Source: Methanothrix sp. (GTDB lineage: Archaea > Halobacteriota > Methanosarcinia > Methanotrichales > Methanotrichaceae). Taken from it: a stretch of DNA of 64,000 bases. Location: positions 32,001 to 96,000 of the forward strand of contig JBAXWY010000004.1 in the NCBI GenBank assembly GCA_037128175.1, given 5' to 3'. The translations under genes were made by a program, and so were the position numbers. The notes under the pieces were generated by a model. The model was not told where the DNA came from, did not search any database, and saw only the letters and a program-made list of their open reading frames with translations. Positions 4,856-57,760 of this stretch are shown piece by piece. Within the stretch, counting starts at the first letter, position 1. Each line of letters begins with the position of its first letter.

Positions 4856-4881
4856 TCATTTTGCAAAGAGGTGCGAAAGGG

Positions 4882-11407: not shown

Positions 11408-11419
11408 CCAAATATCTCC

Positions 11420-32534: not shown

Positions 32535-33341
32535 ATGAAGGTTGCACTCAAGCTCGCCTACCTGGGCGACAACTACTACGGCTTTCAGAAGCAGCCGGAT
32601 CTGGTCACCGTCGATTCCGTGGTTAGGAAGGCGCTGGCCCAAATTGGCGTAATTCACGGCGACTTCTGCTACGCCGGAAGAACGGACCGGGGCGTCTCGG
32701 CTCTGGGCCAGGTCATCGACTTTTGGATCGACGAGGACAGGGCCAAGTTGACCCGACCGCGCTGCGTGAACGGCCGGCTGCCCCGCGATATCTGGACCTG
32801 GGCCTGGGCCAAAGCCCCCATCGGTTTCAGTGCCCGCTGGAATGCCCAGTGGCGAGAGTACCGTTATCTGCTCTGGCATCCGGGCCTCGATCTGGAGAGG
32901 ATGCACGCGGCAGCAGAGCAGCTTTTGGGCGAGCACGACTTTAGAAATTTCTCCTCGGCCAAGGTGGATACGGTGAAGACGCTGCAAAAATTGCAGATCT
33001 CTGAGGAGGGCGGGCTTTTCGTCTTCGACATTCGGGCCAACGGCTTTCTCTGGAATATGGTGCGAAAGATAGTAGGGGCTCTGGAGAAGGTGGGAGCGGG
33101 CCAAAAAGAGATGAGCTGGTTCTCCGATCTTCTGCGCCCGGAGCTGAACCACGGCGCGCCCACCGCCCCAGCGGATGGTCTGATCCTCATGGATGTGGGC
33201 TATGAGGGGCTGGACTGGCAGGTGGACGAGTACTCCCGAGCACGGGCGGCGACGAGCCTTGCGGCAACGGTGCAGAGCAGGATGGCCAGGGCGAGCGTGG
33301 CCAGGGTGATGGAAAGGGCGATGATTGTGGAAAGAGTTTAA
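32535..33341 (+). CDS. truA: tRNA pseudouridine(38-40) synthase
   Basis: AYLG..YYGFQ.QP, AGRTDRGVSALGQ, GEHDFRNF, FLWNMVRKIV. Confidence 0.93.
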   Translation: MKVALKLAYLGDNYYGFQKQPDLVTVDSVVRKALAQIGVIHGDFCYAGRTDRGVSALGQVIDFWIDEDRAKLTRPRCVNGRLPRDIWTWAWAKAPIGFSARWNAQWREYRYLLWHPGLDLERMHAAAEQLLGEHDFRNFSSAKVDTVKTLQKLQISEEGGLFVFDIRANGFLWNMVRKIVGALEKVGAGQKEMSWFSDLLRPELNHGAPTAPADGLILMDVGYEGLDWQVDEYSRARAATSLAATVQSRMARASVARVMERAMIVERV

Positions 33342-34218: not shown

Positions 34219-34962
34219 ATGCCCACCCCCGCCTGGCAATACCACGAGCCCGACCACCCCGGCGCCGACTTCGACGCTCTGGCTGAGATCTACGATCGCA
34301 ATATGCAAAAATTTCGAGATGTTCAGGGCGAGATTGAAGAGGTCATGGACTTCCTCACCCTCCGTCCCGATCAGAGCATCCTGGAGATAGGCACGGGCAC
34401 AGGCGAGTTCGCCCTGGCCGCCGCCCGCCGCTGTGCCCGGGTCTACGCCGTGGACCTCTCGCCAGGCATGCTGCGTTATGCCGAAAAGAAGGCCCAGATG
34501 CGCGGTGTGGCCAACGTCGAATTTCTGCCGGGCGGCTTTCTCACCTACCGGCATGAGGGCAAGCCGCTGGACGCCATCGTTAGCCAGATTGCTCTGCACC
34601 ATCTGCCCGACTTTTGGAAGCAGATCGCGCTTTTACGCATGGCAGAGATGCTGGCCGAGGGCGGAAAGCTATGTCTACGGGATGTGGTATACTCCTTTGA
34701 TCCGGCGAAGCACGGGGAATTCCTGGATGAGTTTATCTCGAAGGCCGCAGAAAGAGCAGGCCCGCAGTTTGCTGGCAGAATATCCGACCACGTGAAGAAC
34801 GAGTACTCCACCATGGACTGGATCATGCGGGGCATGATCGAGAGGGCGGGCTTTGAGATAGAAAGGGCGAAGCATAGCCATGGATTCTTCGCCCTCTACC
34901 TGTGCAAGAAGACTACTAATAGCGCATCAGCAGAAGGGATTTCTAATGATCGACTTGGATGA
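34219..34962 (+). CDS. Class I SAM-dependent methyltransferase
   Basis: ILEIGTGTG, YAVDLS, ALHHL. Confidence 0.88.
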   Translation: MPTPAWQYHEPDHPGADFDALAEIYDRNMQKFRDVQGEIEEVMDFLTLRPDQSILEIGTGTGEFALAAARRCARVYAVDLSPGMLRYAEKKAQMRGVANVEFLPGGFLTYRHEGKPLDAIVSQIALHHLPDFWKQIALLRMAEMLAEGGKLCLRDVVYSFDPAKHGEFLDEFISKAAERAGPQFAGRISDHVKNEYSTMDWIMRGMIERAGFEIERAKHSHGFFALYLCKKTTNSASAEGISNDRLG

Positions 34963-36610
34963 GGATGATCTCAGAAAAATGTGCACAGAGGCCTCTTTCG
35001 ACCGGGGGGAGCGATATTTCGAGGAGGGAAGAGTGCGCATCAAGGAGGCAACGCCCACCAGGATAAAGGCGGTTGTGAGAGGGACAGATGATTACCAGGT
35101 GGAAATTGAGCTGGGCGACGAACTCTCAGGCGAATGCAACTGTCCTTACGACTTGGATGGGCTATGCAAACACATAGTTTCTACCTTTCTGGCAGTCATC
35201 CGCGATGATGGGGAGATCGAGCCTCTGATGAAGAAAAGCATCTGTGAATTGGAGGATACTGAATCCCTCCTGAAGCGGGCCGATCCTGAAACTTTGCGAA
35301 ATTTCCTGCTCTCCGAGATGGAACAGCGACCCGATCTTCAGAATCGGTTCAAAGCCGTCTTCGGCAAAAAAGGCGAGGGAAGAAGCCTGAATGATTATAA
35401 GGCTGATGTGGAATCGCTCTACGATGATGTCGAGGATCACGGTTATATCCCTTACGGAGAGGACGTGGATTTCTCTTCGCTAAGCGATCTGGCTGAGATT
35501 TATATTCAGAAAGACGATCTCCTGGAGGCAGCCAAGATCTACCAGGCCATTTCCGAGGTCATAGCTGAGAAAATGGATGATGTGGACGACTCAGACGGCA
35601 ACTATGGAGAAGAGTTCACGGACAGCCTGGATGCATTCACTGACTGCATATCCACGGCCGGACTGGATTCTAATGACAGGAGACCTTACATCAAGTATCT
35701 CTTCGACAGGTACCTGCTAGGTGATCCCGACTATTTCCAGGACGACTACAGCGAAGCCCTGGATAAGCTCTGCAGCGAAGAGGCGGACCGGCGATACTGG
35801 AAAGATCAGCTGGAGCCGCATATGCCTGGTGAGATTCCAAGTGAAAAGGATTGGGGGCACCATCATGATGCAATTGAGCAGGTCTCGATGATGCTTGACC
35901 TTCTCCTAAAACTCGGTGAGAAGGACGAATTTTATGGGCTCATAGAAAAATATTACCGTGCCAGCCATGATCTCTGTCTCAGGTATGGAGAAAAGCTCCT
36001 GGCGGATGGAGAGAAAGCGAAAGCGCTGAAGGTGGCTGAGGAGGGCGTGGCCATCTTTGAAGATCATTTAACCAAGGAATTGCGAGATTTCCTGAGCAGG
36101 ATCTACAAAGAAACCGATCCTAAAAAGTACCGGGATACACTACAGTCGCTATTTCTCCAGAGCGGGGATTGGAAGTATTACGGGCCGCTCAAGAAGTCCT
36201 CTCAGCCGGAGGAGTGGCAAGAGCGGCTGGGCAAGATACTGGCTCACTTTGCAGAGAACAGATCAAACTGGTCCGGCATGAGCAAGCTAATTGATATCTA
36301 TCTTAAAGAGAAGATGTACGATCAGGCCCTGACAGAGGTACTGGCCAAGAGAAGCCTCTCCACTTTGAGACAGTATCAAAATGATCTGGCCTTCCGCTAC
36401 TCTGAGCAGTACTTCAACGTCTACCGGGAGTTAATTATTCCCTTTGCCGATAAGGATACGGGAAGGAAACACTACCAAGAAGTGGTCTCTTATTTGAAGA
36501 GGATGAAATGCATCGAGGGCTACGAAGGGGCCGTTTCAGAGATCGTGGGGCAGCTCAGGGTAGAGCACAGGAGAAAGCCTGCATTCATCGACGAGATGAA
36601 AGAACTCTGA
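34946..36610 (+). CDS. SWIM zinc-finger domain protein
   Basis: FDRGERYF and CNCPYDLDGLCKH; helical C-terminus ending RRKPAFIDEM. Confidence 0.85.
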   Translation: MIDLDEDDLRKMCTEASFDRGERYFEEGRVRIKEATPTRIKAVVRGTDDYQVEIELGDELSGECNCPYDLDGLCKHIVSTFLAVIRDDGEIEPLMKKSICELEDTESLLKRADPETLRNFLLSEMEQRPDLQNRFKAVFGKKGEGRSLNDYKADVESLYDDVEDHGYIPYGEDVDFSSLSDLAEIYIQKDDLLEAAKIYQAISEVIAEKMDDVDDSDGNYGEEFTDSLDAFTDCISTAGLDSNDRRPYIKYLFDRYLLGDPDYFQDDYSEALDKLCSEEADRRYWKDQLEPHMPGEIPSEKDWGHHHDAIEQVSMMLDLLLKLGEKDEFYGLIEKYYRASHDLCLRYGEKLLADGEKAKALKVAEEGVAIFEDHLTKELRDFLSRIYKETDPKKYRDTLQSLFLQSGDWKYYGPLKKSSQPEEWQERLGKILAHFAENRSNWSGMSKLIDIYLKEKMYDQALTEVLAKRSLSTLRQYQNDLAFRYSEQYFNVYRELIIPFADKDTGRKHYQEVVSYLKRMKCIEGYEGAVSEIVGQLRVEHRRKPAFIDEMKEL

Positions 36611-36675
36611 AGATCTGCGATTGAAAGCGACCTCATGCTAAAGTCCAAATATGAACCGAGAGAATAATTAAATTG

Positions 36676-37379
36676 ATGCATAAACTCACCGCCTTTGTCT
36701 TTGGAAAAGTGCAGATGGCCGGCTACAGATCTAAGGTAGCGACCATAGCCAGAGCATTTGGCCTTAAAGGGTATGTAAGAAATCTGCAGAACGGCAGAGT
36801 GAAGATATTGGCCGAGGGCCCCCTTGACGATCTGGAGCGGTTTCTTAAGGCCATAAAAATTGATAATACTCTTATCAAAGTTGACGATATCCAAAGCGAG
36901 TTTTCCGATGCATTGGGTGCTTACGACGATTTTTTCAAGGTGGCTGGCGAGAATGAGACCGATGCCCGGCTTGATGTTGCTGCCGGTCATCTTAAAGAAC
37001 TGATTGTGGTAGTGAAAGACGGTTTTAAGGAGACGGTCTCCAAGCTAGGGGGCATGGACGGCAGCCTGAAAGAGATCTCCCATAAACAGGACGAAATGAT
37101 AGTGGAGATGAGAGGCGGATTCAAGGAGCTATCCGGAAAGCAGGACGAAATGATAGCCGAGACGAGAGGCGGCTTCAAGGAAAACAACGAACTGCTCCAA
37201 GAGTTCTCCGCAAAGCAAGATTATGTGATCGATGCCATTGACGAAGCCCGCGCGGACGTCGTCTCCGAAGTGCAAGGCCTGCGCTCGGATCTGAAGGGGA
37301 TCTGAAGGGTCGCATGGATGAGCGGCTGCAGAGGATCGAGAGCGATGTGGTGGAGATCAAGGCCCGCATGAGGCCTTAG
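36676..37379 (+). CDS. Acylphosphatase-domain protein with coiled-coil tail; last ~24 codons cut off by an 11-bp tandem duplication (ORF stops at 37305)
   Basis: GKVQMAGYR and GYVRNL acylphosphatase motifs. GATCTGAAGGG occurs twice (37288-37298, 37299-37309); removing one copy restores ...DLKGRMDERLQRIESDVVEIKARMRP* ending at 37379. Confidence 0.75.
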
Positions 37380-37459
37380 CTCGTTGTCGTTGTAGCCGAC
37401 GGGTTGATCCCTTAGGAGCAGTATTGGGGTAAACATTACCAGGCCGAGAACATATTCGA

Positions 37460-37596
37460 TTCGTGTTCTAGGCCTGCCTGGGGCGGCGTGGCAGTGTCGC
37501 CCTGCAGAAATCCAGGAAACCGGTGAGACGGGGACGCGATCGGGCCCTTGATTGGGGAGAAGCGCCACCATTTGAGAGGCGGCCCGAGGGCCTGGA
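37460..37596 (+). repeat. GC-rich intergenic repeat, copy R1
   Basis: GCCTGCCTGGGGCGGCGTGGCAG...GCAGAAATC...GATCGGGCCC...GGCGGCCCGAGGGCCTGG. Confidence 0.8.
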
Positions 37597-37666
37597 GGAT
37601 GATGATATGGAATGCCGCGTTTCCAGATAGACAAAGAATTTATTCTGACAGTTCTGTTATCAATCC

Positions 37667-38797
37667 ATGAGACTCATCTGGATATTTCTGGGCATAATTG
37701 CCATCGCCGCCAGTACGCCAGACAGAACGCTCGAACAAGCGGACAATGCTACTTCAATAGTGTTCGTATTCGACAGGGATTTCGTGCCCTTCACCTATGA
37801 GGAGAACGGCTCGATCCATGGCTTCGAATTGGACCTGCTCCGGCTGCTGGGCGAAGAGGAAGGTTTTCAGATAATTCCAAAGCCAATGGTTTGGACACAG
37901 GCCATGCTCTCCTTCCAGAAAGGAGATGCTGATGTGATAGGAGGATTGGTCAAGACCCAGGAGAGGCAAAAGCTATACAACTTCACAGCCCACCCACATG
38001 GAACTTTTGACATATTGACCTTCGTTTTGGATGATAGTGAAATCAGATCGACTGCCATGCTTCAGGGCAGAAGAGTGACGGCGCAGAAGGGAAGCATTTC
38101 TTTGGACCTCCTCAAGAATCAGACCGGTTCCCTGGTGCAGGCTTACGATTCCGAGGGCGAGGGGCTTCAGGCTCTCCTCCAGGGAAAGGCAGATGCCTTC
38201 GTGGGCGGAGGTTCCACCACATGGTTTAGGATTAAGCAGCAGAACATCTCCGGCATCAGAGCTCTGGCCATGCCCTGGGAGATGCACTCACTCTACTTTG
38301 GGGTAAGAGATGCAAAGCTCTTGCAGTCCCTTAACCGTGGCATGGAGAAGCTGATTTCGGACGGAAGGTACGACCGGCTCTATCGCAGATGGTTTGTGCA
38401 AGAGCTTGGTGAGGCTGAGATTTTGGCCCTGGTGAATGCCTCCCGCCGGGCCGGTTTCAATGCTTATGCACCATACTCGCGCTACTCGGTGGGTTCGGCG
38501 GTGCTCGCCTCCTCGGGCAAGATCTACACCGGCTGCAATGTCGAGAATGCCCTTTATGGCCTGTCCACCAGCGCTCTGAAGGTGGCGGTCTTCAAGGCGG
38601 TATCAGAGGGCGATGGCAACATCCGGGCAGTGGCCAATTACCTACCGGACGGAAAGGCTGCTGCGCCTACAGGAGACGAACGTCAGATCCTATTCGAGCT
38701 AGGCAGAGGCATTCTGGTAGTCCTGGGGGAAGAAGGAAATTATACGACTAAAATGGTGTCTGAAATCTTCCCCTACCCCTTTGAGATGAGGGATTAA
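37667..38797 (+). CDS. Secreted amino-acid-type substrate-binding domain fused to a catalytically dead cytidine deaminase-like domain
   Basis: Signal peptide; DFVPFTY..GFELDL SBP family-3 pattern; AYAPYS...GCNVEN CDA motif, but CAE is replaced by SAL and PCGxCRQ by PTGDERQ. Confidence 0.8.
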   Translation: MRLIWIFLGIIAIAASTPDRTLEQADNATSIVFVFDRDFVPFTYEENGSIHGFELDLLRLLGEEEGFQIIPKPMVWTQAMLSFQKGDADVIGGLVKTQERQKLYNFTAHPHGTFDILTFVLDDSEIRSTAMLQGRRVTAQKGSISLDLLKNQTGSLVQAYDSEGEGLQALLQGKADAFVGGGSTTWFRIKQQNISGIRALAMPWEMHSLYFGVRDAKLLQSLNRGMEKLISDGRYDRLYRRWFVQELGEAEILALVNASRRAGFNAYAPYSRYSVGSAVLASSGKIYTGCNVENALYGLSTSALKVAVFKAVSEGDGNIRAVANYLPDGKAAAPTGDERQILFELGRGILVVLGEEGNYTTKMVSEIFPYPFEMRD

Positions 38798-38847
38798 ATG
38801 GGTTCACCTTGATAGTGCCGAAATCCTGCGATTTTTGTGCAGGCTCC

Positions 38848-38936
38848 GGGCCTGCCTGCCTGCCCGTGCGCGCCCACCCACGGGCGCGCACACATGCACG
38901 GGAGCGGGCGCGTGCCAGTGGCAGAGCCAGAATCCT
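38848..38936 (+). repeat. GC-rich intergenic repeat, copy R2 (5' half, degenerate)
   Basis: GCCCACCCACGGG...GCGGGCGCGTGCC...GTGGCAG...CAGAATCC. Confidence 0.7.
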
Positions 38937-39056
38937 GGGAAGGGCGACTACAGCAAAGAGCGCTCTCATGTGTGTGATCTTGGAATTGACGAGATATTTC
39001 AGGGAATAGAGAGAATGAAGAAGGAGAAAGCGAGAGGCCACCAAGATGACAGATGA
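38934..39056 (+). pseudogene. 3' remnant of an antitoxin gene homologous to 40729-40947
   Basis: GKGDYSKERSHVCDLGIDEIFQGIE vs GRGDYTKERSHVLGLTLDEIFMGIE. Confidence 0.75.
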
Positions 39057-39417
39057 TATTGCAGGAGATAAGACAGCAGCTCGCAGGCAATCCAAGACCC
39101 GTCAGTATTGCGGCTTTGTGGGCGAGACCAATTACAATGAGGCGTTTATTGAAGAGCTCTACCGTGATTGTGAGGAGAGTGGTTATGATTGCAGCCAGAT
39201 TCCTCTGCCGCGGGATGAGCGGATCGTCGTCGATCCCAAGATCGCCCACGGCAAGCCCATCATACGAGGAACGCGAGTGCCTGTGGCCGTCATCCTGGGT
39301 GCGCTGGCCGGGGGCATGCAGATCGATGAGACTGCCCGGGAGTATGGGATAAGTCAGGAGGACGTGAGGGAGGCGATCGGGTACGCGGCCTGGATCGTCT
39401 CTCAAGAAGATATTTAA
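39046..39417 (+). CDS. DUF433 (antitoxin-like) protein with an N-terminus derived from another antitoxin
   Basis: RIVVDPKIAHGKPIIRGTRVPV is the DUF433 motif. N-terminal KTRQYCGFVG...EESG matches the C-terminus of 41305-41526. Confidence 0.7.
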   Translation: MTDDIAGDKTAARRQSKTRQYCGFVGETNYNEAFIEELYRDCEESGYDCSQIPLPRDERIVVDPKIAHGKPIIRGTRVPVAVILGALAGGMQIDETAREYGISQEDVREAIGYAAWIVSQEDI

Positions 39418-39440
39418 TCCTGGCAAGCCGATGGTAGTTC

Positions 39441-39587
39441 ATGTATGAGCAAGCTACTCCAATGTCAAAGGGAGAACAAGAGAGATCAGCAAATGCTGTT
39501 GAAGGTTTGACTCCTGGCGAGAGACAGCGCCTTGAAGAAAGCATGCGGCGTAATGAAAAACTCATGAAGCGTTTAGCCGAAATGTGA
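39441..39587 (+). CDS. 48-aa putative Doc antitoxin peptide; missing from the ORF track
   Basis: MYEQATPMSKGEQERSANAVEGLTPGERQRLEESMRRNEKLMKRLAEM. The C-terminal helix resembles Phd-type ...L.RLA ends. Stop is 4 bp from the doc stop. Confidence 0.55.
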   Translation: MYEQATPMSKGEQERSANAVEGLTPGERQRLEESMRRNEKLMKRLAEM

Positions 39588-39591
39588 GCGC

Positions 39592-39951
39592 TCAGAGTCT
39601 ACCGGTGTTTTTCAAAAGCCAGATTTTGACTTCATCGACCTGACATTTGTAACTGGCGATTCTTAGCAGCATTCGGATTATTCTCTCTTCTTTTGCAGTG
39701 ATGGCGTACCCTTCGCTGCTCAGGATTAATTCTGCAATTTGAAAGGCAGATCTCTTGTTTCCATCCAGGAACGGGTGGCAATTAGCGACGAAATGCAGAG
39801 CGATTGCAGCTTTGCGGAAAAGATCTGACTCGGCATTGATCTGATCGACCAGGTAATCGATCGTCCCCTGGCAAAGAACTCCATCTATTCCGCCAAAATT
39901 GCGGATTATAAGCTTATGAATATCCAGGATTTTCTCGGAAGTGAGGATCAT
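39592..39951 (-). CDS. doc: Death-on-curing (Doc/Fic) family toxin
   Basis: HPFLDGNKRSA Doc-type motif; ILDIHKLII...GG; about 119 aa from MILTSE. Confidence 0.88.
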   Translation of the reverse strand: MILTSEKILDIHKLIIRNFGGIDGVLCQGTIDYLVDQINAESDLFRKAAIALHFVANCHPFLDGNKRSAFQIAELILSSEGYAITAKEERIIRMLLRIASYKCQVDEVKIWLLKNTGRL

Positions 39952-40006
39952 GATCGCCACCATTGCGTGAGTTGGCATCATTACTACTAACTTGCGGTGC
40001 CAGTCA

Positions 40007-40210
40007 GCCCTCGCCCACCCGCGGGAGCGCGCGCACGGGCATGGGGGCGGGCGCGTGCCTGAGGCAGCGTGGCAGTCGTTGCAGAAATCAGGAGGGATTG
40101 GGAGGACTGGGGCGTGGTCGGGCCCTCGCCTGGGGGAGATCACCGCCGGTACGGGACGGCCCGAGGGCCCCGGCCACGCTGCGAGGGCAAGGGCGCTGTG
40201 TCGTGGTGGC
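40007..40210 (+). repeat. GC-rich intergenic repeat, copy R3 (near full length)
   Basis: GCCCACCCGCGGGAGC...GCGTGGCAGTCGTTGCAGAAATCAGG...GGTCGGGCCCTCGCCTGGGGG...GGCCCGAGGGCC...GGGCAAGGGCGCTG.GTCGTGG. Confidence 0.88.
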
Positions 40211-40304
40211 TCCCGCAAAAGGGCATTTCGAAGAAAAGATTTAATGTCTATGAGGTCATTTTATCTAGCAGCGTTATTGGCCAAATATTAATAATCATGA
40301 TGAT

Positions 40305-40745
40305 ATGAAAGTCTATATGGACGCCTGCTGTTTATGCAGACCCTTTGATGATCGGACACAAGATCGAATTAGGATCGAAACCGAAGCAGTTTTGACCATC
40401 TTGGGCAGGTGTAATGAGGACTGGATTTTGGTCGGAAGTGAGGCAATTGATTTTGAATTATCCGCCGTGATGGATCAGAAGAAAAGAACAGATGCTTTTG
40501 TACTGGCATCCCTTGCCAAAGAAAAAATAAAGACCGACAAGAGAATCATCAAAAGTGCATCAGAGCTTGAAAAACTTGGCTTTAAAACTATGGACGCCGC
40601 ACACATTTCATGTGCAGAACGAGCAGCGGACATTATGTTTACAGTCGATGATGACGTGCAGAGAGTCGCGAGAATAAAACGAAACCAGATCTCTATCGAA
40701 ATAGAGAATCCTTTGAGGTGGTTGATAAATGTCTTCCAAGACTGA
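40305..40745 (+). CDS. PIN-domain toxin
   Basis: VYMDACCLCRPFDD, E, MDAAHISCA, TVDD. Confidence 0.85.
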   Translation: MKVYMDACCLCRPFDDRTQDRIRIETEAVLTILGRCNEDWILVGSEAIDFELSAVMDQKKRTDAFVLASLAKEKIKTDKRIIKSASELEKLGFKTMDAAHISCAERAADIMFTVDDDVQRVARIKRNQISIEIENPLRWLINVFQD

Positions 40746-40947
40746 TGTTAGAAGCACAGAGGAGATAAGAAGGATCGGGATAGAAGCACTGGCTGAAGCC
40801 CTCGGACCTTTGGATGCCGTTCGCTTCCTGCAAAGCTTCGACCTGGGGAGAGGCGACTATACCAAGGAGCGCTCTCATGTGCTCGGTTTGACATTGGATG
40901 AAATCTTCATGGGTATCGAAAAACGAAGAAATATTGGTTTAGATTAG
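40729..40947 (+). CDS. Small antitoxin downstream of the PIN toxin
   Basis: EIRRIGIEALAEALGPLDAVRFLQSFDLGRGDYTKER; overlaps the toxin gene. Confidence 0.75.
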   Translation: MSSKTDVRSTEEIRRIGIEALAEALGPLDAVRFLQSFDLGRGDYTKERSHVLGLTLDEIFMGIEKRRNIGLD

Positions 40948-41015
40948 CATAGATTACAGCGGTTCTGATCCGTGTTCTGGGCCAAAAATGCCAGGCACTC
41001 GTATCACTTATCATT

Positions 41016-41190
41016 CGGCCCCTGCCCACCCGCGGATGCGCGCCTGCCTGGAGCGGCGTGGCATTCGTCGGCAGAAATCAGGGGGAGCGGGTGAAGGGCG
41101 CGGTCGGGCCTTCGCCTGGGGGATCACCACCGTTACGGAGGCGGCCCGAGGGCCTGGGCCACAGGGGCAAGGGCGCTGAGTCGTGGGGAT
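41016..41190 (+). repeat. GC-rich intergenic repeat, copy R4
   Basis: GCCCACCCGCGG...GCCTGCCTGGAGCGGCGTGGCATTCGTCGGCAGAAATCAGGGGGAGCGGGTGAAGGGCGCGGTCGGGCCTTCGCCTGGGGG...GGGCAAGGGCGCTGAGTCGTGG. Confidence 0.88.
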
Positions 41191-41304
41191 GCTGGCCAAG
41201 GTTGTTTGGTGTCGGATAGTGAGCGCGGCCAGGATCGTTAGGGACAAGAATTTGTTATGATGACCAGAAATCATTAAAAGAAGGAGTGCAATAGTACTGA
41301 TAAC

Positions 41305-41526
41305 ATGACTGAAGCCGTAATGGTTGATGGAGGTCTCCTTATTCCAAATAGCCTTCTAACGAAGCTTGGCACAGAAAATCTCGAAGTCTTGACCAGAGGT
41401 CGCGAGATTGTGATCCGGCCAAAAACCAAGACCCGGCAGTATTATGGTTTCATGGGGATCACTAAATATGATGAAAAGCTCATCAAAGAGCTAGAGCATG
41501 ATTGGGAAGAGAGTGGCAAAGATTGA
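41305..41526 (+). CDS. AbrB/VapB-like antitoxin
   Basis: GLLIPNSLLTKLG...EIVIRP; overlaps the downstream PIN gene. Confidence 0.75.
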   Translation: MTEAVMVDGGLLIPNSLLTKLGTENLEVLTRGREIVIRPKTKTRQYYGFMGITKYDEKLIKELEHDWEESGKD

Positions 41527-42029
41527 ATCTAGCAGAGTATTCTTCTCAACATCCGATTTTCATCGACGCCAATATATTTCTTGATTACGCGCTTCCCAAC
41601 ATTGAATTTAGCTGCGCAGCCTCCGATTTCTTAGAGCGAGTCGAGCTGCAAGATATAGTTGCCATCACAACTCCTGTCGTCCTAAACGAAGTCTCTTATA
41701 TTCTGCTCCTCCAACAGGGAATGACGATTTTAGATACCGAAAATAGAGATACTGTGAGGAACAAGATTAAGGCAAATGGCCATTTTGCTCATCTGTGCTA
41801 TGATGCAGTCGATACGTTCAATGAATTTATCAGCGGTCTTGATGGCTTGAAATTGACCCCAGTCCAACCTGAGGATTATTTGCTTGCGTCCGATCTGGGA
41901 AGGGCTTACAATTTGCTGCCAATCGATGCACTCCATCTATCTGCAATGAGGCGGGCCCATATCGTGGATATCGCCAGCAGAGATCGGGATTTTGAGCGAG
42001 TCGATGGAATCGTGATCTGGAGTCCGTGA
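41523..42029 (+). CDS. vapC: VapC PIN-domain toxin
   Basis: IFIDANIF, VLNEV, LLPIDALH, SRDRDF. Confidence 0.88.
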   Translation: MNLAEYSSQHPIFIDANIFLDYALPNIEFSCAASDFLERVELQDIVAITTPVVLNEVSYILLLQQGMTILDTENRDTVRNKIKANGHFAHLCYDAVDTFNEFISGLDGLKLTPVQPEDYLLASDLGRAYNLLPIDALHLSAMRRAHIVDIASRDRDFERVDGIVIWSP

Positions 42030-42072
42030 TTAGCATATCTCCGGGTCCCGGTCCCGGTTGAAGATGCCCCGT

Positions 42073-42188
42073 CGGCCCCCCCGCCCACCCACGGGAGCGC
42101 GCTGGCGTGCGGGCGCATGCCTGGGGGCGGCGTGGCAGTTGTCGGCAGAAATCCGGGTGAGCGGGGGAAGGGCGCGGTCGGGCCTTCC
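42073..42188 (+). repeat. GC-rich intergenic repeat, copy R5 (3'-truncated)
   Basis: GCCCACCCACGGGAGC...GCGGCGTGGCAGTTGTCGGCAGAAATCCGGG...GAAGGGCGCGGTCGGGCCTTCC, then an abrupt switch to AT-rich DNA. Confidence 0.88.
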
Positions 42189-42202
42189 TTAAATAGAAAT
42201 TA

Positions 42203-44782
42203 TTAATTTTCTGAAATTATTATATTCCTAATATCTATTCTACCCAAGTTTAATTGTACATACTTGATTAGCTGCTTCTTATGAGTTCTTAACCATGCGG
42301 GATTGTTTCCCCGATGCAACTCAATTTCCAAGGTTACATCTAGACGGTTTGCAGTTTTCTCATTTATTTCTGAAACCGCTTGGCTGTGATAGAAGAAGTT
42401 GATAATTCTTTTCAGCACGCATATATTTATCTCAGAGCTTGGCTTTTCGAAAAATCTTAGTTCTTTTTTGGGTTCATCTAATGGAGATTCCATTTTCTTG
42501 AAATCGATTTCATCCCTGTTTTTTTTATGATTACATTCACTGCATAATGTCTGTAAATTCTCCATCCTTGTTTCGCCATCCATAGAATCTGGCTTTATAT
42601 GGTCCATCTCCAACTTTGCCAAATGCCCATTCTTCCCGCAACAGAGACATGTATTTTCGTCCCTCTTTAGGATTTGTTTTTTCAATTCCAGTTTCTCTTC
42701 AAGTGTCAACTTATTTTTCGGTTTGCTCAATCCGATTTTGATTTCCGGCCATTTTCCGGTACGCTTATGGTAATTGTATGTATTTAGTGCAGCATCAAAT
42801 GCCGTCTTAAATTTAAATAGATCTTCATTATATACATCAACCCATAAATTGCCTTCTTTGTTAAATTCGAGTTCTAGCTCTTCCCATTGCTCATTGTCAT
42901 TTTTCCGTTCTAATTTCTTAACCAAGACATCTAGATCGTATTTTTCTCGATCCTCCATCGGGTAGAATTCAGGAGCTTCGCCATTTTGTGCAATATGTCT
43001 TGCAATTTTCATTAGGCTATTTTCTAGTGCCTCACTAATATTATCTTCACCCAAATCAAAATACTTCGTCATCCAATTATGAATCTTTGGGGCTAACGTC
43101 CTTTCGTCCAATTTTTCATTTGCCCACTCATGCGGTATGTTCCTGGATTCATTCTTTATAAATTTAATAAACTTTTCTTTCGTCTTATTGTAGACCATCA
43201 CATATTCAACGAATGATGGCAACTCTTCATCGCCACTATTATTACCATTTGAGCTAACGACGATCTCTGTCCTATACCATCCTACTGGTATGTACTCTAA
43301 AAACGGGCCGTCATTAAAATTGATGCCACTTTCAATCTGCCTGCTCAACAGTTCAATCAAACGTATTGGTATTAGTTCACGAGGTCGATATCCTCTAACG
43401 ACCGGAGGTTGTTCCTCTTCGCCTTCTGGATGGGCCCAAACATCAATCAATCCCTTCCAGTTGTCCATGAACAGAATAATATTGGCATGGGTCTTATTTG
43501 GACCGCCCCCTGCCTTTTTGCCCCGTAATGCTCTCCCAATCATCTGCGTCATTAAAATAGGACTAGTCGTTTGTCTCGTGAGCATTACCGTCTTGACATC
43601 AGGGACATCGACACCTTCTGTAAGCATGCGAACATTCGCCAGCACATCATATTTTCCATCCCTAAATTCTTTTATAATCAATTCGGCATCTGGCGTTTTG
43701 TGGGAATCTTTATCGACTTTAGAATAAATGGCTTCGGATTTTATATTAGTATTGCTCAAGCCATTCTTGGTCCGAATTGATCTGACGAGATTCTTATCAT
43801 TTAATTTGCTCTTAAAATATTCACATTGAAACCATCTATCTGCAAAAATTATCGTCTTCCCATATTCTTCACTATTCTTTATATAGTCTGCTATTATAAA
43901 ATCATTTCGTTCATGATCATCAGCTAATTTTTCAATTATATCTTCACGCAAATCTTTATGTTCTCGGACAAGTCGATCTCTGAGGTCGTCATCAACTTCA
44001 AAATCTCTACCAGTCGGCTTAGGAAGATACCTGGGGTTTGCAAGAATATTTTGTGCAATCAAATCCGCCTTTTTGGCTTCATATATAATCTTTTGATTAA
44101 AAATTTTAAAAAGCCAGCCGCTGATTTTCTTTTCAGTATGAGTAGGTGTTGCAGTTAGCCCCAGAACACAAGGCGTTTTAATAATCTCTTTGATGCCCAT
44201 TAGAAGTGTTCGACAACCATAAGCGGGCGCATGATGGGCTTCATCAAGTACAACAAAAAGTCCAGTGTCAACACAACTTTTTATGTATTTTTTAAATTGG
44301 GTTTCTGTTTTCTTTCCTTTTCCATCTTCTGGCTTTGCGTTAAAATAATTGATTGCCGTTTGGGTTGTGACAATTAGAACATCATCTGTCTCCTTGATGG
44401 ATGACGCTTTAGATTGGGATGGATTGCTTGATACAACTCTTATATTCAATGTATTCCTTGTACGAGGTATCTCAATGGCATTGTCTAAAAAAGACTTGCT
44501 TGCCTGATCCAACAAATACGAAGACTGGGCCAACCAAAGAACTTTTATTTTTTTTGGAATAACGTTCCTGCATATCCAATTGATTGCCGTAAAAGTTTTC
44601 CCGGCCCCGGTAGGGAGCACTAACAGCCCGCCAGTGTATTCGTTCGAAGGGAGCAAAAAAGTACTGCTCAATTTTTTAAACGCTTTCTTTTGATGTGGAA
44701 ATGGCTCTTTTGGCAAGTATTCTGAGTTGTCTTTTCTTAATTTTTTAAGATCGATTGATTCATATTGGAGCTTGTTTTCCAT
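42203..44782 (-). CDS. SF2 (ResIII/DEAH) helicase fused to a C-terminal HNH endonuclease; defence candidate
   Basis: PTGAGKT, LDEAHH, LTATP, LTEGVDVP, QMIGRALR; CLCCG...EMDHIKP...NLQTLCSECNHKK; AT-rich. Confidence 0.88.
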   Translation of the reverse strand: MENKLQYESIDLKKLRKDNSEYLPKEPFPHQKKAFKKLSSTFLLPSNEYTGGLLVLPTGAGKTFTAINWICRNVIPKKIKVLWLAQSSYLLDQASKSFLDNAIEIPRTRNTLNIRVVSSNPSQSKASSIKETDDVLIVTTQTAINYFNAKPEDGKGKKTETQFKKYIKSCVDTGLFVVLDEAHHAPAYGCRTLLMGIKEIIKTPCVLGLTATPTHTEKKISGWLFKIFNQKIIYEAKKADLIAQNILANPRYLPKPTGRDFEVDDDLRDRLVREHKDLREDIIEKLADDHERNDFIIADYIKNSEEYGKTIIFADRWFQCEYFKSKLNDKNLVRSIRTKNGLSNTNIKSEAIYSKVDKDSHKTPDAELIIKEFRDGKYDVLANVRMLTEGVDVPDVKTVMLTRQTTSPILMTQMIGRALRGKKAGGGPNKTHANIILFMDNWKGLIDVWAHPEGEEEQPPVVRGYRPRELIPIRLIELLSRQIESGINFNDGPFLEYIPVGWYRTEIVVSSNGNNSGDEELPSFVEYVMVYNKTKEKFIKFIKNESRNIPHEWANEKLDERTLAPKIHNWMTKYFDLGEDNISEALENSLMKIARHIAQNGEAPEFYPMEDREKYDLDVLVKKLERKNDNEQWEELELEFNKEGNLWVDVYNEDLFKFKTAFDAALNTYNYHKRTGKWPEIKIGLSKPKNKLTLEEKLELKKQILKRDENTCLCCGKNGHLAKLEMDHIKPDSMDGETRMENLQTLCSECNHKKNRDEIDFKKMESPLDEPKKELRFFEKPSSEINICVLKRIINFFYHSQAVSEINEKTANRLDVTLEIELHRGNNPAWLRTHKKQLIKYVQLNLGRIDIRNIIISEN

Positions 44783-44924
44783 CCCAGTCACTACTAGTGC
44801 AAATCCTCCCCAGCCATATAATCTTATCGGAAAATTACAGATGCGACACATCTAATACAAAAGACAATGATGTCATCGCTTTCACAAACCCCAGGAACGG
44901 CAGAGATTGCCTCGTCTCCCCGTG

Positions 44925-45080
44925 GGCCTTCGTCCACCCGCGGGAGCACACGCACAGGCACGGGGGCGGGCGCGTGCCTTGGTCGGTGGCAATCGTCGGC
45001 AGAAATCAGGGGGGTTGGGAGGAGGAAGACGCGGTCGGCCCTCTCACCCGGAGAGAGCGCCGCCGATCCGGGACAGCTCA
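44925..45080 (+). repeat. GC-rich intergenic repeat, copy R6
   Basis: GTCCACCCGCGGGAGCA...GGGGGCGGGCGCGTGCC...GTGGCAATCGTCGGCAGAAATCAGGGGG...GCGGTCGGCCCTC. Confidence 0.85.
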
Positions 45081-45164
45081 CCGCCGCGCCGACCTGCATG
45101 GATCTCTAAATTGAGAAATCTATTTTTAGAGGCAGGGGCGTATTAGTAATGTTTGGTGAGATAG

Positions 45165-45377
45165 ATGGAGGTTCTTGTTAAGAAAGGCGGGATAATTGAG
45201 CTTCCGAGTTCAATATTATCTGAGATCGACCTTTGTGAAGGCAAACGAGTAGCTCTGAGCGTGAAAGGTGGAGAATTGCTCGTCAAGCCGATAAAAAGTC
45301 TTACTGATCAACTTATTGGCTCAATCCGATTCGATGATCAAAAACTTATAGAAGAGATAATCGAATCAGAGGATTAG
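45165..45377 (+). CDS. AbrB/MazE-family antitoxin
   Basis: GIIELPSSILSEIDLCEG...ELLVKP. Confidence 0.8.
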   Translation: MEVLVKKGGIIELPSSILSEIDLCEGKRVALSVKGGELLVKPIKSLTDQLIGSIRFDDQKLIEEIIESED

Positions 45378-45379
45378 CT

Positions 45380-45886
45380 GTGATTAGCTCTCTGGATTTG
45401 CTTGCGCCCCAATCCAAGATATTTATAGATACAAACATATTTTTGTATGGCGCCATGGACTATTCAAAATACCGAGCTACATGTCGTACGTTCCTGCAAA
45501 ATATTGAATCCGGCACTTATTTTGCAGCCACTTCTGTCCAGGTTTTAAATGAGATCGTCCACAAGCTCATTCTCGCCGAGACCACAAAGACATATCGTTT
45601 GCGAAGCTAGAGCGAAGCCAAGAAGCTAATAGAAGACAAGCCGGAAACGATCTCAAGCCTTACGAGGGTCTGGAAGACCTACGCTGTAATTAGAGCATAT
45701 CCTTTGGTCATCTACAGCATCGATAAGGCCACAATGGATATGGCCGCAGATCTCTCAAGCAGGTATGGGCTCTTCATATCCGATGCATCTCACCTGGCAG
45801 TCATGAAAATGAACGGCATTTCCAATATCGTTACTAATGACAACGATTTTCAGCTAGCAGAAGACATCAGCATTTACAAACCATAA
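45380..45886 (+). pseudogene. vapC: VapC PIN toxin interrupted by one in-frame TAG (45608-45610)
   Basis: IFIDTNIF and VLNEI lie before the stop. The same frame continues to ISDASHL and TNDNDF, ending at 45886. Confidence 0.82.
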
Positions 45887-45924
45887 CGGCATCTGCCCGT
45901 CTTCGTTCCCCGATTGCGGCGACG

Positions 45925-46026
45925 CTCGCGCCCGCGAGCGTGCGCTGGCGCCTGCCTGGGGCAGCGTGGCAGTCGGCGGCAGAAATCAGGGGGAGCGGGG
46001 GAAGGGCGCGGTCGGGCCCTCGCCCT
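45925..46026 (+). repeat. GC-rich intergenic repeat, copy R7 (3'-truncated)
   Basis: GCGCCTGCCTGGGGCAGCGTGGCAGTCGGCGGCAGAAATCAGGGGGAGCGGGGGAAGGGCGCGGTCGGGCCCTCGCCC, then AT-rich DNA. Confidence 0.88.
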
Positions 46027-46123
46027 AATAATGAATTGTGGTCGCGTTCGGATTATGTGATGCCATTTATTTCATCAGTCGATAATTTATAGAACTAATA
46101 ACAACTCTATATGGGTTGTGTTG

Positions 46124-48262
46124 ATGACAAAACCAGAAGATAACTCATTGTCTGCTGATAGGGCGTTAGTAGACCCTGATAAAGATCAATTGGGCTATTC
46201 ATCATTTGCAGAACATATATCTAAAATAATTAGCAGTATGGAGCCCTATGACGGATTCGTCATTGCTATCTATGGACCTTGGGGGTCGGGGAAAACTACT
46301 TTGCTAAATTTTGTAAATCACTATCTAAGTCATGCTAATGAAAATGAACCGCCAGTTGTAGTGAGTTTTAATCCGTGGTGGTTTTCTGGCCACGAAGATT
46401 TAACGATACGTTTCTTCTATCAGCTGCAGGCTATCTTGAGCAAGGGAAAGTTCTCAATGAATGATTTAACAAAACAAATGGCAGATTTTGCAGACATTGT
46501 TTCAGATATCCCTATACCATATGCTTCAACCGGAAAAGTAGTATCAAAAATAATTCGCGCAAGGCAAAAAGATATAAATGAATTAAAAAATAATATTTCT
46601 AGATCATTGAAAAAGCAAAACAAGAAGATACTTGTTACAATCGACGACATCGACAGATTGACTCCAGAAGAAATTAGGCAAATATTCAGAGTCGTAAAGG
46701 CAATCGCAGATTTTCCTAATATAATCTATTTAATGGCTTTTGATAAAAGGATAGCCATTAAGGCTTTATCCGAACAAAATGGTTTATCTGGTGAAGAATA
46801 CCTTGAAAAAATCGTTCAACTACCTTTAGAATTACCCCCGCCAGACGAAGCATCTTTCCGATCGATGTTTTTTGGAAAATTAAATAAAATTTTAGGGGAT
46901 ATTCCCGAAGAAGAATTTGATAAAAAATATTGGGAAGAGATTTATTGGAGGGGGTTAGATCGCCTTATCTTCACCCCTCGAGACATAGTTCGTCTCACGA
47001 ATACTCTGAGCATCACTTATCCACTTGTCAAAGGCGAAGTAAATCCGGTAGATTTTATTGCTCTAGAATCAATTAAGATTTTTTGTCCAATAGTTTATAA
47101 TTCTATATCAAACGAGTCTCGAATGTTCATAGGAGTAATTGATGAATATGGATTTAGAGGAGCTCCAAGTCTGGAAGATCACAAGAGCTTTCTTAATTTA
47201 TTATTCGAAAAAGTAGACGACAGAATCAAAGAACCGATTAAGCGTCTTTTAAACCTAATGTTCCCAAAACTGCGAAAAATTTATAGTGATAATAAGAATT
47301 TTTTCGCAGATCAATCCGTGTGCAGAAAGCAACTTCGTATATGCAGCCCAGACATATTTCCAATATATTTCCGATTAGCAATTCCAAAAGGAAGCATATC
47401 AACAATGGAAATAGGTTCAATACTTGCTTTCGCGAGAGATTCGAGGTTATTTGGTTTGAAGCTTTCAGAATTAACTACTATAAAAAGGCCAGATGGTACA
47501 ACTATGGCCAAAGCATTTATTGATCGCCTTAACGACTATACAGATGAGAAAATATTGCTCGAAGAAATACCTACCATAACCAGAGCGCTATTCGAAATGG
47601 GCGATAAATTGCTCGTTCCAGAAGATGAACCACAGGTCGGATTAGAATTATCTTCCGATGCTAAGTTAAGATTTTTGATACGAGATCTCTTATCACGTTT
47701 GGATAAAAAAACAAGATCCGACTTATTAAAGCAAGCCATCACTGAGGGTCATGCTCTTACAATTATCGTTGAATTTGTCGCAATGCTTGATCATGAACAT
47801 GGCAGATTCGATGGAAGTAGTATACTCTCAGAAGAGACTAGAATTGTCGGAGAAGATTGTCTAGACGAATTTGAAGGTATTGCTGTTGAAAAAGTGAATG
47901 AAGCAATTAAAAATGGCAACCTATTAAATGCTAAAAATTTGCCGTCTATCTTGTATTACTGGCATAATTGGCGAAAAGAACAAGTAGTAGGTTGGATTCA
48001 GCAAATCGCAACAGATGACAATAATTTAGTTACATTTTTAGAGAAATTTGTCGCGAAGAGCTATACAAATCTTGGAATCAAATACTTCCTCGATCCAGAT
48101 TCGATAAAGCCATTTATCGATCCCGCCCAAATCATTGATCGAATTCGGACAATTTCGGAAAAAGAAGATCTGAATGAAGGTCAAAGAGCTGCAATTAATT
48201 ATTTCATTCATGGATATGAATTAAAACAGCAGGGCAAAAGCCCAAGCTGGTTCGCAGAATGA
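46124..48262 (+). CDS. KAP-family P-loop NTPase; defence candidate
   Basis: DQLG, IYGPWGSGKTT, FNPWWF, VTIDDIDRL, YLEKIVQ, TPRDIVR; AT-rich. Confidence 0.9.
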   Translation: MTKPEDNSLSADRALVDPDKDQLGYSSFAEHISKIISSMEPYDGFVIAIYGPWGSGKTTLLNFVNHYLSHANENEPPVVVSFNPWWFSGHEDLTIRFFYQLQAILSKGKFSMNDLTKQMADFADIVSDIPIPYASTGKVVSKIIRARQKDINELKNNISRSLKKQNKKILVTIDDIDRLTPEEIRQIFRVVKAIADFPNIIYLMAFDKRIAIKALSEQNGLSGEEYLEKIVQLPLELPPPDEASFRSMFFGKLNKILGDIPEEEFDKKYWEEIYWRGLDRLIFTPRDIVRLTNTLSITYPLVKGEVNPVDFIALESIKIFCPIVYNSISNESRMFIGVIDEYGFRGAPSLEDHKSFLNLLFEKVDDRIKEPIKRLLNLMFPKLRKIYSDNKNFFADQSVCRKQLRICSPDIFPIYFRLAIPKGSISTMEIGSILAFARDSRLFGLKLSELTTIKRPDGTTMAKAFIDRLNDYTDEKILLEEIPTITRALFEMGDKLLVPEDEPQVGLELSSDAKLRFLIRDLLSRLDKKTRSDLLKQAITEGHALTIIVEFVAMLDHEHGRFDGSSILSEETRIVGEDCLDEFEGIAVEKVNEAIKNGNLLNAKNLPSILYYWHNWRKEQVVGWIQQIATDDNNLVTFLEKFVAKSYTNLGIKYFLDPDSIKPFIDPAQIIDRIRTISEKEDLNEGQRAAINYFIHGYELKQQGKSPSWFAE

Positions 48263-48280
48263 TTTAGAAACGGAATGAAG

Positions 48281-49891
48281 TCAAGGGCCGGACCTACTTT
48301 TCCCCTTCATCGCTTCCACAAAAGCCAGGAACGGCGGCGACGGCTTGCCCGGTCTGGACTTCATCTCCGGGTGGAACTGCGAAGCAAAGAAGAAGGGATG
48401 CTCGGCGATCTCGCAGATCTCCATCAAATCCCCGTTGGTGCCCGAGAAGATCATGCCCTTCTCCTCAATCTGGGCGATGTAAGCGGGATTAACCTCGTAG
48501 CGGTGCCGGTGCCTCTCCACGATCTCGTCTGTTCCGTAAATCCTGTGCGCCAGGCTGCCCGCTTTCAAATGGGCGGGATAGTTGCCTAACCTCATCGTCG
48601 CGCCCATGTGCCTGATCTTCTCCTGCTCCGGGAGAAGGGCAATCACTGGATTGGGCGTGGCCCCAAACTCCGTGCTGCTAGCGCCCTGCAGGCCGCAGAC
48701 GTTGCGGGCGTACTCGATTACAGCGAGCTGCATTCCGAAGCATATCCCCAGGTAGGGAACCTTCATCTCCCGGGCGTACTGCACGGCCTTCATCTTGCCC
48801 TCTGTCCCGCGGAACCCAAAGCCGCCCGGAACCAGTATGCCGTCCGCGTCTCTCAGGATGATATCCGCCGAGCCGTGCTCCAGCTCCTCGGCATCGATCC
48901 ACTGCACATCAATCTTCACCCCGGCCTCAATGCCGGCGTGCTTGAGGGACTCCCGAATGGAAAGGTAAGCATCCTCCATGGGGTCAGCACACTGCGAGCC
49001 CACGGTGTACTTGCCCACGATGGCCACCTTGACGATGCCCTCGGCTGCGTCCATCTTCTGCACGAACTCGTCCCAGTCTTTCCGCTCTTCCAGGGGGAAG
49101 AGCCGCATGGCCTTCATCAGATACCTGGCCAGGCCCTCCGCCTCCATCTGCAAGGGAACGCGGTAAATGTCGTCGGAATTGTGGGCGCTGATTACGGCCT
49201 CCATAGGCACATCGCAGAAGTGGGCGATCTTGTGCTTGGTCTCCTCCAGGAGGGGGCGCTCGCATCTTACTACGATCATGTCCGGCTGCAAACCCAGCTG
49301 GCGCATCTCTTTCACGCTGTGCTGAGTGGGCTTGGTCTTCTGCTCGCCATCCATGGTGGAAGGGGCGAGGGTGACATGCACAAAGAAGATGTTGCCCGTC
49401 TCTTCATACTTGAGCTGGCGCATGGCCTCCAGGAAGGGCATGGACTCGATGTCGCCCACCGTCCCACCCACCTCGATCAGACATATCTCGCAGCCTCCGT
49501 CCCGGGAAACCTGGCGAATGCGTCTCTTGATCTCTTCGGTGATGTGGGGGATGATCTGCACCGTCTTGCCCAGATACTCGCCTCTGCGCTCTTTTTCGAT
49601 GACAGTGCTGTAAACCTTGCCGGTGGTGATGTTGTGGTCGCGGGTCAGTTCCACATCTAAAAAGCGTTCGTAGTTGCCCAGATCAAGGTCCACCTCGCCC
49701 CCATCCTTGAGGACATAAACCTCTCCATGCTGGAATGGGCTCATGAGTCCGGCATCGATGTTGATGTAAGGATCAATTTTAATGGCTGTAACCTTATAGC
49801 CCCTGTTCATGAGCAGCCTGCCGATGGACGCCGCAGTAATGCCCTTGCCAAGGCCGCTCATAACCCCGCCTGTGACCACGATATATCTCAT
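48281..49891 (-). CDS. pyrG: CTP synthase
   Basis: [45 protein letters not shown]. Confidence 0.97.
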
Positions 49892-57639: not shown

Positions 57640-57760
57640 AAACAATTCAGCCCCCTAATTTTTTTTTTGAGAGGTAACTGTAACTTAGGTCCGGAAGTAT
57701 TTAAACTAAATCTGTGCGGGGCGAAAGTAATCTATTCAAGATCGAGCAGAAGTATATGCA

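Follow-up and report, generated by a model that had tools for sequence, protein, structure and literature searches.

Defence and toxin-antitoxin islands turn over fast, and the route by which their modules enter and leave is usually obscure unless a mobile element is visible. By which route, then, do modules come and go in an island of the archaeon Methanothrix sp. in which a GC-rich repeat stands between each gene module and the next? The island lies between the core genes truA and pyrG in a stretch of 64,000 nucleotides (nt) from GenBank assembly GCA_037128175.1 (contig JBAXWY010000004.1, positions 32,001 to 96,000, forward strand), which we refer to as the window and whose own numbering is used here. 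Most of the island's module boundaries bear a copy of one locus-specific repeat, and in related genomes modules have been duplicated, lost or replaced between the copies. The copies are non-coding linkers peculiar to a single toxin-antitoxin/defence island of a Methanothrix clade. Our tentative answer is that they supply the general recombination machinery with portable homology and so drive the turnover of cassettes in this hypervariable defence island between truA and pyrG. We found no description of this repeat in the full-text literature, among the matches listed.

A preliminary description of the window had reported seven co-oriented copies of the repeat (R1 to R7), and an nhmmer profile built from these copies recovered exactly these seven on the + strand, with E-values of 1.6e-53 to 2.7e-31 (Table 1). 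All lie within 37445-46031, so that the seven copies are packed in 8.6 kb with none in the remaining ~55 kb; the next three hits had E-values of at least 2.4, in agreement with the earlier statement that the housekeeping parts of the window carry no copy. A degenerate pattern of the core matched six of the seven copies and none of 100 shuffled sequences. Exactly one copy separates each successive pair of modules, as had been proposed, and the repeats are markedly richer in GC (61-78%) than the cargo between them (36-54%), which likewise upholds the first account. The last module, a KAP-family NTPase gene resembling PifA, has a repeat on one side only, with none on its pyrG side.

The family is therefore real, but it is not the single element of up to ~200 bp that had been envisaged. 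Alignment resolves it into a composite of three lettered modules: module A (CCCACCCRCGGG..GGGCGCSTGCC), a conserved G-rich core of ~70 nt (module B, for which the consensus given earlier is correct), and an optional module C of ~90 nt that is present only in some copies. Module A is absent in R1, and module C is absent in R5 and R7. In R2 only module A holds up as repeat; it is followed by ‘GTGGCAG’, and what had been taken for the remainder of the copy is a fragment of an antitoxin gene. The core of R1 is the most divergent of all, and its lead sequence is also found ahead of copy g in one of the relatives (L006, below); R1 looks like that copy after a deletion, bounded by two GCCTGCC words, that removed module A. 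In R4, and likewise in copies a, c and d of a second relative (L008), module C is followed by a tail of ~45-70 nt that is similar, at the DNA level, to the DUF433 3' end. A decayed DUF433 gene was rejected as the source of the repeat because tblastn found no DUF433 similarity within the repeats themselves, and we read these tails as a sign of mosaicism and not of where the repeat came from.

A scan of species-representative genomes with the degenerate core pattern returned 10 loci, which were then scored with the profile. Three had profile support (E <= 8e-24) and all belong to Methanothrix or Methanotrichaceae metagenome-assembled genomes (MAGs), here called L003, L006 and L008; the other seven, all bacterial, were dismissed as chance pattern matches (best profile E 0.26). 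Each of the three relatives has a single locus, seen as a view of 2-4 kb in an incomplete MAG, and the scan did not return the genome of the window itself. The pattern recovers all 6 cores of the window and just 3 of the 6 in the relatives, and because it thus finds 9 of the 12 known cores, further copies in the relatives would probably have shown had there been several. The repeat is confined to this locus. Its copies in the relatives again form co-oriented arrays spaced 0.4-1.1 kb apart, and two of the three loci have neighbours known from the window: L003 adjoins pyrG and L006 adjoins the gene for a solute-binding domain fused to a cytidine deaminase (SBP-deaminase).

The island is common to these relatives, whereas its module content and order are not, a comparison that the preliminary description had called for. 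In L003, where pyrG is 92% and the DUF433 region 93% identical to the window, the order is an antitoxin fragment, DUF433, an orphan AbrB-like gene, a repeat of A+B, an intact copy of the sixth module (AV2), a repeat of A+B+C', a low-GC 335-amino-acid (aa) gene and pyrG. The neighbour of pyrG is accordingly KAP/PifA in the window and an unrelated 335-aa gene in L003, and upstream 5.7 kb of window modules are absent in L003. L008 shows a C tail, the fourth module (AV1), a repeat, the PIN gene with its 72-aa partner, a repeat, AV1 again, a repeat, and then a DUF433 3' remnant, a small open reading frame (ORF) and Doc on the - strand; AV1 is thus duplicated there. L006 reads from an unrelated flank through the SBP-deaminase, an A-only copy, AbrB and Doc fragments and a repeat to the contig end. 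Because the genes enclosed by copies of this repeat differ in the relatives, the repeat appears to mark the sites at which the island is reshuffled. The L006 contig terminates inside a repeat copy (at 1-160), and arrays of this kind are for that reason probably under-assembled in short-read MAGs and their frequency underestimated.

Where the sequences change is equally telling, and changes of homology or identity are concentrated at repeat edges. Syntenic BLAST segments have 12 ends in window coordinates; by our reading, eight of these fall inside a repeat or no more than 30 nt from its edge (37630, 38899, 38919, 39998, 41205, 42184, 45099 and 46019), and four lie away from repeats (39404, 45198, 45390 and 48305). 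The cargo is far better conserved than the repeats that flank it. Between the window and L008 the PIN promoter with both genes of the third module (40195-40954) and the segment 41265-41424 are ~99% identical, against 55-88%, with indels, for R3, R4 and R5; within L008 the two copies of AV1 are mostly 95-100% identical and the adjacent repeats 60-90%. R3 (subfamily 1) and copy b of L008 (subfamily 2) occupy the same place upstream of PIN with cores that are 66% alike, from which it follows that the linker was replaced. Given this mismatch and the gap in identity, linkers are exchanged or altered much faster than cargo, and the repeats do not accompany it.

Breakpoints also fall inside genes, namely at the AbrB C-terminus and at the 3' ends of VapC, DUF433 and pyrG. 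AV1 is a mosaic with respect to L008, ~99% identical at its 5' end, ~64% in the VapC body and 95% in the last 40 nt of VapC, as though the body had been swapped between conserved ends. By tblastn (E 2e-10) the fragment fused to R2 shares 61% identity with residues 35-67 of the 72-aa ORF of module 3 (40729-40947), and L003 has a longer version of it (aa 22-67). The N-terminal ~45 residues of the DUF433 protein (39046-39190) match the C-terminus of the small ORF of AV1 (41398-41523) with 52% identity (tblastn, E ~1e-10), so that this is a chimeric gene produced by recombination between modules. The right end of the island lies within the last codons of pyrG, without a repeat: these codons differ between the window (48281-48305) and L003 (~750-800), and because homology starts only ~24 nt inside the gene, cargo replacement has probably rewritten the C-terminus of this core enzyme. 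Such mosaic fragments (the R2 fusion, the DUF433 N-terminus, the VapC swap) point to both homologous and illegitimate recombination.

With one shared orientation, lengths of 70-230 bp and 60-90% similarity to one another, the repeats could well act as portable homology. Machinery of the RadA type would then produce unequal crossovers between copies, duplicating or deleting modules, and could convert one copy to the sequence of another; module-plus-repeat circles or imported DNA would be integrated by repeat-by-repeat crossovers, and illegitimate joins would leave gene fragments and one-sided insertions, the last module included. Unequal exchange of this kind would, together with conversion and integration, account for the AV1 duplication of L008, for the modules gained or lost between the window and L003 and for the contrast between well-conserved cargo and divergent linkers, and the whole would take on the look of an integron array without the need for a dedicated integrase. 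The G-rich core B may in addition be bound by some factor or form a G-quadruplex, which would explain why 77-90% identity is kept across species. We infer homologous recombination as the agent from the mosaic pattern of identities.

Several points weigh against passive homology blocks as the full answer. Homologous recombination does not explain how unrelated low-GC genes were first placed beside a repeat. Core B is at least as alike between genomes (mean pairwise identity 77%, 47 pairs) as within them (71%, 19 pairs), so that the cores show no concerted evolution within genomes, where conversion between copies, if frequent, might be expected to make them uniform; near-consensus copies from different genomes reach 86-90% in a star-like pattern, and the core is conserved as well as or better than the coding sequence of the SBP-deaminase, which is 85% identical between the window and L006. 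Because passive homology blocks need no such conservation, the core suggests a sequence-specific role as a recombinase site, a regulator site or an RNA element. The low-GC helicase-HNH and KAP/PifA genes start right at the 3' edge of B (R5 and R7), and together with that of copy e of L003 these three independent junctions fall within ~4 nt of one another, 8-12 nt past the GGGCC at the end of B, which looks more site-directed than random crossovers would be. Finally, the ~99% blocks shared with L008 may reflect recent transfer or simply a genomic background that is equally alike; whichever their origin, the discontinuities sit at repeats and, in a minority, inside toxin-antitoxin genes.

The repeat had been called non-coding, and it is: a coding repeat was rejected in that none of the six frames is open in the core across all 12 copies containing B. 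Core indels have lengths that are not multiples of three, and 17 ORFs crossing repeats gave no Pfam match even at E <= 10, an 18th just downstream of R1 having one weak unrelated match only. A protein search with the spurious 87-aa ORF across R4 returned five word candidates, none at E <= 0.01, and is uninformative. No fold is common to the whole family. Single-stranded DNA folds of A+B (four copies, two strands) gave z-scores of -0.85 to +0.86, and among RNA folds of B+C only R3 was strong (-4.0 and -3.6 on its two strands), R4 and copies b and d of L008 scoring +0.2 to +1.9; 12 of the 14 folds were weak (-0.85 to +1.85), both R3 strands being the exceptions. The alignment fold showed compensatory change in 1 of 28 pairs (covariation term +2.58), and RNAalifold runs concurred. 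A tRNA or attachment-site remnant was likewise rejected, there being no tRNA in the window.

The readings that compete with the homology blocks are partly compatible with them and not fully exclusive. One holds that the repeat is a cis-acting expression element under selection, either an upstream region bound by a regulator or a G-rich 3' untranslated region or boundary, with recombination as a by-product; we regard this as possible yet unlikely. Six of the seven copies are followed, 56-120 nt beyond their end, by a + strand start codon and four begin 0-53 nt past a + strand stop, the core is conserved across species and carries the words CTGCC-N11-GGCAG-N5-GGCAG, and its + strand is G-rich, with a canonical G-quadruplex motif in 8 of the 12 aligned core copies (as read from the alignment); five of the eight + strand motifs of this kind in the 64 kb fall in repeats. 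In bacteria, control of a defence island by one common repressor is known (PMC12255303). Against this, R5 lacks any promoter to act on, since the convergent gene beside it presents its 3' end, the spacing of core and start codon ranges from ~60 to ~200 nt depending on module C, and the promoters next to orthologous copies are much better conserved than those copies themselves. The window's other defence island (10868-12892) has no copy, and neither conserved RNA structure nor an Rfam match speaks for an RNA element: the window had no match at gathering thresholds and two weak unrelated ones at E <= 5, neither inside a repeat. Still less probable, in our judgement very much so, is a non-autonomous element of the MITE (miniature inverted-repeat transposable element) or REP (repetitive extragenic palindromic) type, inserted repeatedly between genes such that the repeat moves and the cargo stays. 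Its modular mosaic build does recall composite REP elements (bacterial interspersed mosaic elements) or the neisserial intergenic mosaic elements (NIMEs) treated in parts of PMC3898611, its star-like identities place copies near one consensus in different genomes, and in R3 and in copy b of L008 the first part of B is an approximate inversion of the last part of C. Copies dispersed over the genome, as expected of a MITE or REP and as the preliminary description had allowed for, were however not found: there is one locus per genome in the three relatives, all incomplete MAGs, and none elsewhere in the window. All copies lie on a single strand, no terminal inverted repeat or hairpin is shared across copies, no target-site duplication or empty site is seen within the 2-4 kb loci, and a distant-mode blastn search with R4 found nothing alike in plasmid or phage collections.

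Integron attC sites are imperfect inverted repeats that fold as a single-strand hairpin and have the cores RYYYAAC (R'') and GTTRRRY (R'). The preliminary description had proposed an integron-analogous platform for capture and shuffling while seeing neither integrase nor attC cores. Its outcome finds support, in that content and order differ among relatives and most segment ends fall at repeats, but nothing shows site-specific recombination. If it were at work, an unlinked recombinase would recognise core B, cut near its 3' edge and move modules as circles, a scheme we think improbable. Its broader form, a capture platform of the Methanothrix clade that would use a double-stranded G-rich attachment repeat instead of attC hairpins and a recombinase encoded elsewhere, seems to us just as doubtful; if true, cassette systems would have evolved a second time, independently, and in an archaeon that matters globally for the production of methane. 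The scheme fits a core conserved across four genomes, the single orientation of every copy, the clustered junctions of R5, R7 and copy e of L003 at the B 3' edge, the low-GC foreign genes that begin exactly there, the variable module content and order, and cargo (toxin-antitoxin, restriction-like, abortive infection) that is typical of integron cassettes in the portions of PMC9668308 concerned with them. On the other hand, none of 60 scanned ORFs in the window belongs to an integrase, recombinase, transposase or resolvase family (Pfam), no RYYYAAC...GTTRRRY core pair occurs on either strand of 37000-48500, and the family lacks both a shared hairpin and covariation. A Xer-type core has two inverted arms of ~11 bp around a spacer of ~6 bp (PMC2958812, in part), and no conserved 11-6-11 core was found across the copies. 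The best 10-6-10 palindrome of R2 (10 of 10) matches or beats all 200 shuffles, whereas those of the other copies reach 5-8 of 10 in differing registers and are equalled by 13-200 of 200 shuffles. The junctions at the B 3' edge do not share one exact base, the repeats do not accompany the cargo, the last module has no distal repeat, and several breakpoints lie within genes.

The comparison with known systems leads in the same direction. The repeats of one integron array resemble each other, as do the Vibrio cholerae repeats (VCRs), and the same holds here. Sedentary chromosomal integrons and clusters of attC sites lacking integron-integrases (CALINs), archaeal ones included, are described in parts of PMC9668308 (Ghaly et al. 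2022) as having, like this island, a co-oriented repeat between modules of ~1 kb, cargo rich in toxin-antitoxin and anti-phage genes, and array content that varies among relatives. Unlike them, the locus has no intI among its 60 window ORFs (not that a CALIN requires IntI), no R''/R' cores or attC hairpin, repeats that do not accompany the cassette, a last module without a distal repeat, and some breakpoints in genes. Integron cassettes generally share one orientation and lack promoters; in this array AT-rich regions precede the modules and 2 of 7 are inverted, which may set them apart. Membership among the integrons was rejected on the integrase, core and hairpin results; ‘integron-analogous in outcome’ is a fair description, and an integron-like mechanism is unproven and less likely. 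In orphan toxin-immunity cassette arrays (contact-dependent inhibition (CDI), Rhs and MafB) and in pilE/pilS, short conserved repeats let homologous recombination swap modules, and at pilE/pilS a G-rich element with a G-quadruplex may start recombination. Those repeats are coding and shared with an expressed gene, whereas ours are intergenic and the modules are complete operons.

Both mafB and pilS are mentioned in sections of PMC3898611, which also describe neisserial minimal mobile elements, in which, as here, different whole-gene cassettes lie between the same conserved genes; these are incorporated by homologous recombination, and intergenic NIME arrays are thought there to promote such recombination with resident or imported DNA. 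NIMEs are built of 20-bp dRS3 elements and RS units, which have ~700 occurrences genome-wide (PMC3898611, same sections), against one family of 70-230 bp at one locus in our case. The minimal mobile elements and NIME arrays are the closest working analogue. The present host is an archaeon, for which natural transformation is not known to us. The dif modules of Acinetobacter, as far as portions of PMC6449649 describe them, are small modules, toxin-antitoxin and Fic/Doc genes included, that lie between short recombination sites and are shuffled between replicons without a recombinase gene next to the array, a housekeeping recombinase serving the sites; the pdif sites have 28-bp XerC/XerD cores in alternating orientation and are mostly on plasmids. 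The array described here is chromosomal, has its copies in direct orientation throughout and shows no conserved 11-6-11 core. Taken as a whole, the three related loci support a repeat-mediated recombination hotspot in a defence island, with cassette-like turnover that appears to take place at the repeats.

Table 1. Repeat copies, cargo modules and anchor genes of the truA-pyrG island, in window coordinates.
Feature	Position	Strand	nhmmer profile hit	Description	Basis
truA	32535..33341	+		left core gene	Pfam
SWIM protein	34880-36610	+		576 aa, N-terminal SWIM zinc finger	Pfam, PADLOC
R1	37445..37610	+	37445-37658	lead GAGAACATATTCGATTCGTGTTC, then B + C	nhmmer, alignment
Module 1	37667..38797	+		SBP_bac_3 solute-binding domain fused to cytidine deaminase	Pfam, NCBIfam
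R2	38835..38925	+	38835-39050	module A only, perfect 10-6-10 palindrome, joined at GTGGCAG to gene fragment	
Antitoxin gene fragment	38922..39020	+		paralogue of 40729-40947 ORF	tblastn
DUF433 protein	39046..39417	+		mosaic gene	Pfam, tblastn
48-aa ORF	39441..39587	+		conserved, convergent with Doc	46% identity to L008 counterpart, E 8e-9
Doc	39592..39960	-		Fic/DOC toxin	Pfam, TIGR01550
R3	39990..40222	+	39990-40222	A+B+C, subfamily 1; sole copy with strong long-range hairpin	
Module 3	40305..40947	+		PIN-domain protein (40305-40745) and 72-aa partner ORF (40729-40947)	Pfam
R4	40999..41203	+	40999-41203	A+B+C, then tail resembling DUF433 gene 3' end	
Module 4 (AV1)	41305..42029	+		73-aa ORF and VapC/PIN toxin	Pfam
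R5	42057..42190	+	42057-42200	A+B only; low-GC cargo follows	
Module 5	42203..44851	-		helicase (ResIII/Helicase_C) fused to HNH nuclease; 37.7% GC	Pfam
R6	44902..45096	+	44902-45096	A+B and divergent C, subfamily 1	
Module 6 (AV2)	45165..45886	+		AbrB-like antitoxin and interrupted VapC	Pfam, NCBIfam
R7	45883..46024	+	45883-46031	A+B only; low-GC cargo follows	
Module 7	46118..48262	+		KAP-family P-loop NTPase; 36.2% GC	Pfam
pyrG	48281..49891	-		CTP synthase, right anchor	Pfam

Between truA and R1 the order is truA, a methyltransferase, the SWIM protein and an acylphosphatase (Pfam, NCBIfam, PADLOC). In PADLOC the first ~180 residues of the SWIM protein match PDC-S62, a defence candidate (9e-20), as well as DpdE at its N-terminus, and for this reason the accessory island may begin left of R1. 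The acylphosphatase domain spans just residues 7-87 of a 210-aa ORF (36673-37378 region), beyond which a further open stretch runs on in another frame to 37378; a frameshift or a gene fusion may thus lie at the array's left edge. Within the array five of the seven modules are on the + strand and two are inverted, and AT-rich, TATA-like stretches lie upstream of the module genes. The SBP-deaminase is 85% identical to that of L006 at the nt level. Just past its stop, R2 carries at 38866-38891 a 10-bp inverted repeat with a 6-nt loop (GTGCGCGCCC ACCCAC GGGCGCGCAC), which none of 200 shuffles equalled and for which the orthologous L006 copy scores 8 of 10; it may form a stem-loop at the 3' end of the gene.

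Some of the labels first given to the cargo need adjustment. DUF433 and Doc are both present as described, but they are convergent, with the 48-aa ORF between them, and do not form an operon; Doc is 53% identical in aa to its L008 counterpart. The AbrB labels are weak, since the small ORF of AV1 has no Pfam or NCBIfam match and the AV2 antitoxin matches the AbrB model only below the cut-off; its L003 homologue has a weak sub-threshold match to MazE_antitoxin (Pfam, E 0.004). The AV2 VapC, first labelled a pseudogene, is interrupted by a single in-frame stop, and L003 holds an intact, divergent allele of AV2 whose VapC is 53.5% identical in aa. By PADLOC the helicase-HNH protein is PbeA-like (1.1e-24) and the KAP NTPase is PifA-like across its full length (1.2e-119).

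Elsewhere in the window the second low-GC island, at 10868-12892 on the - strand (34-35% GC), comprises a 490-aa AAA_15/AAA_21 ATPase matching PD-T4-4_A (4e-49, PADLOC) and an unannotated 179-aa ORF. At 910-6350 lie three tandem radical S-adenosylmethionine (SAM) genes, one with a SPASM domain, with large direct repeats that follow and overlap them (263-nt units x4 at 4801-6145, together with 300-, 204- and 106-nt pairs), which may be repeated precursor-peptide genes of a cluster for ribosomally synthesized and post-translationally modified peptides (RiPPs). A 197-nt direct repeat of 82% identity at 56848-57356 falls inside a 411-aa ORF (56410-57645, - strand) without a Pfam match, whose product thus appears to be internally duplicated. 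Genes for Topoisomerase VI and A-type ATPase, present as well, identify the host as an archaeon.

What the finding means depends on which agent acts on the repeat. If it is true that the repeat suffices, as the homology-block reading would have it, this island would show a simple way for archaea to shuffle cassettes without an integrase; if a dedicated recombinase exists, the island would instead belong to a new kind of gene-capture system.

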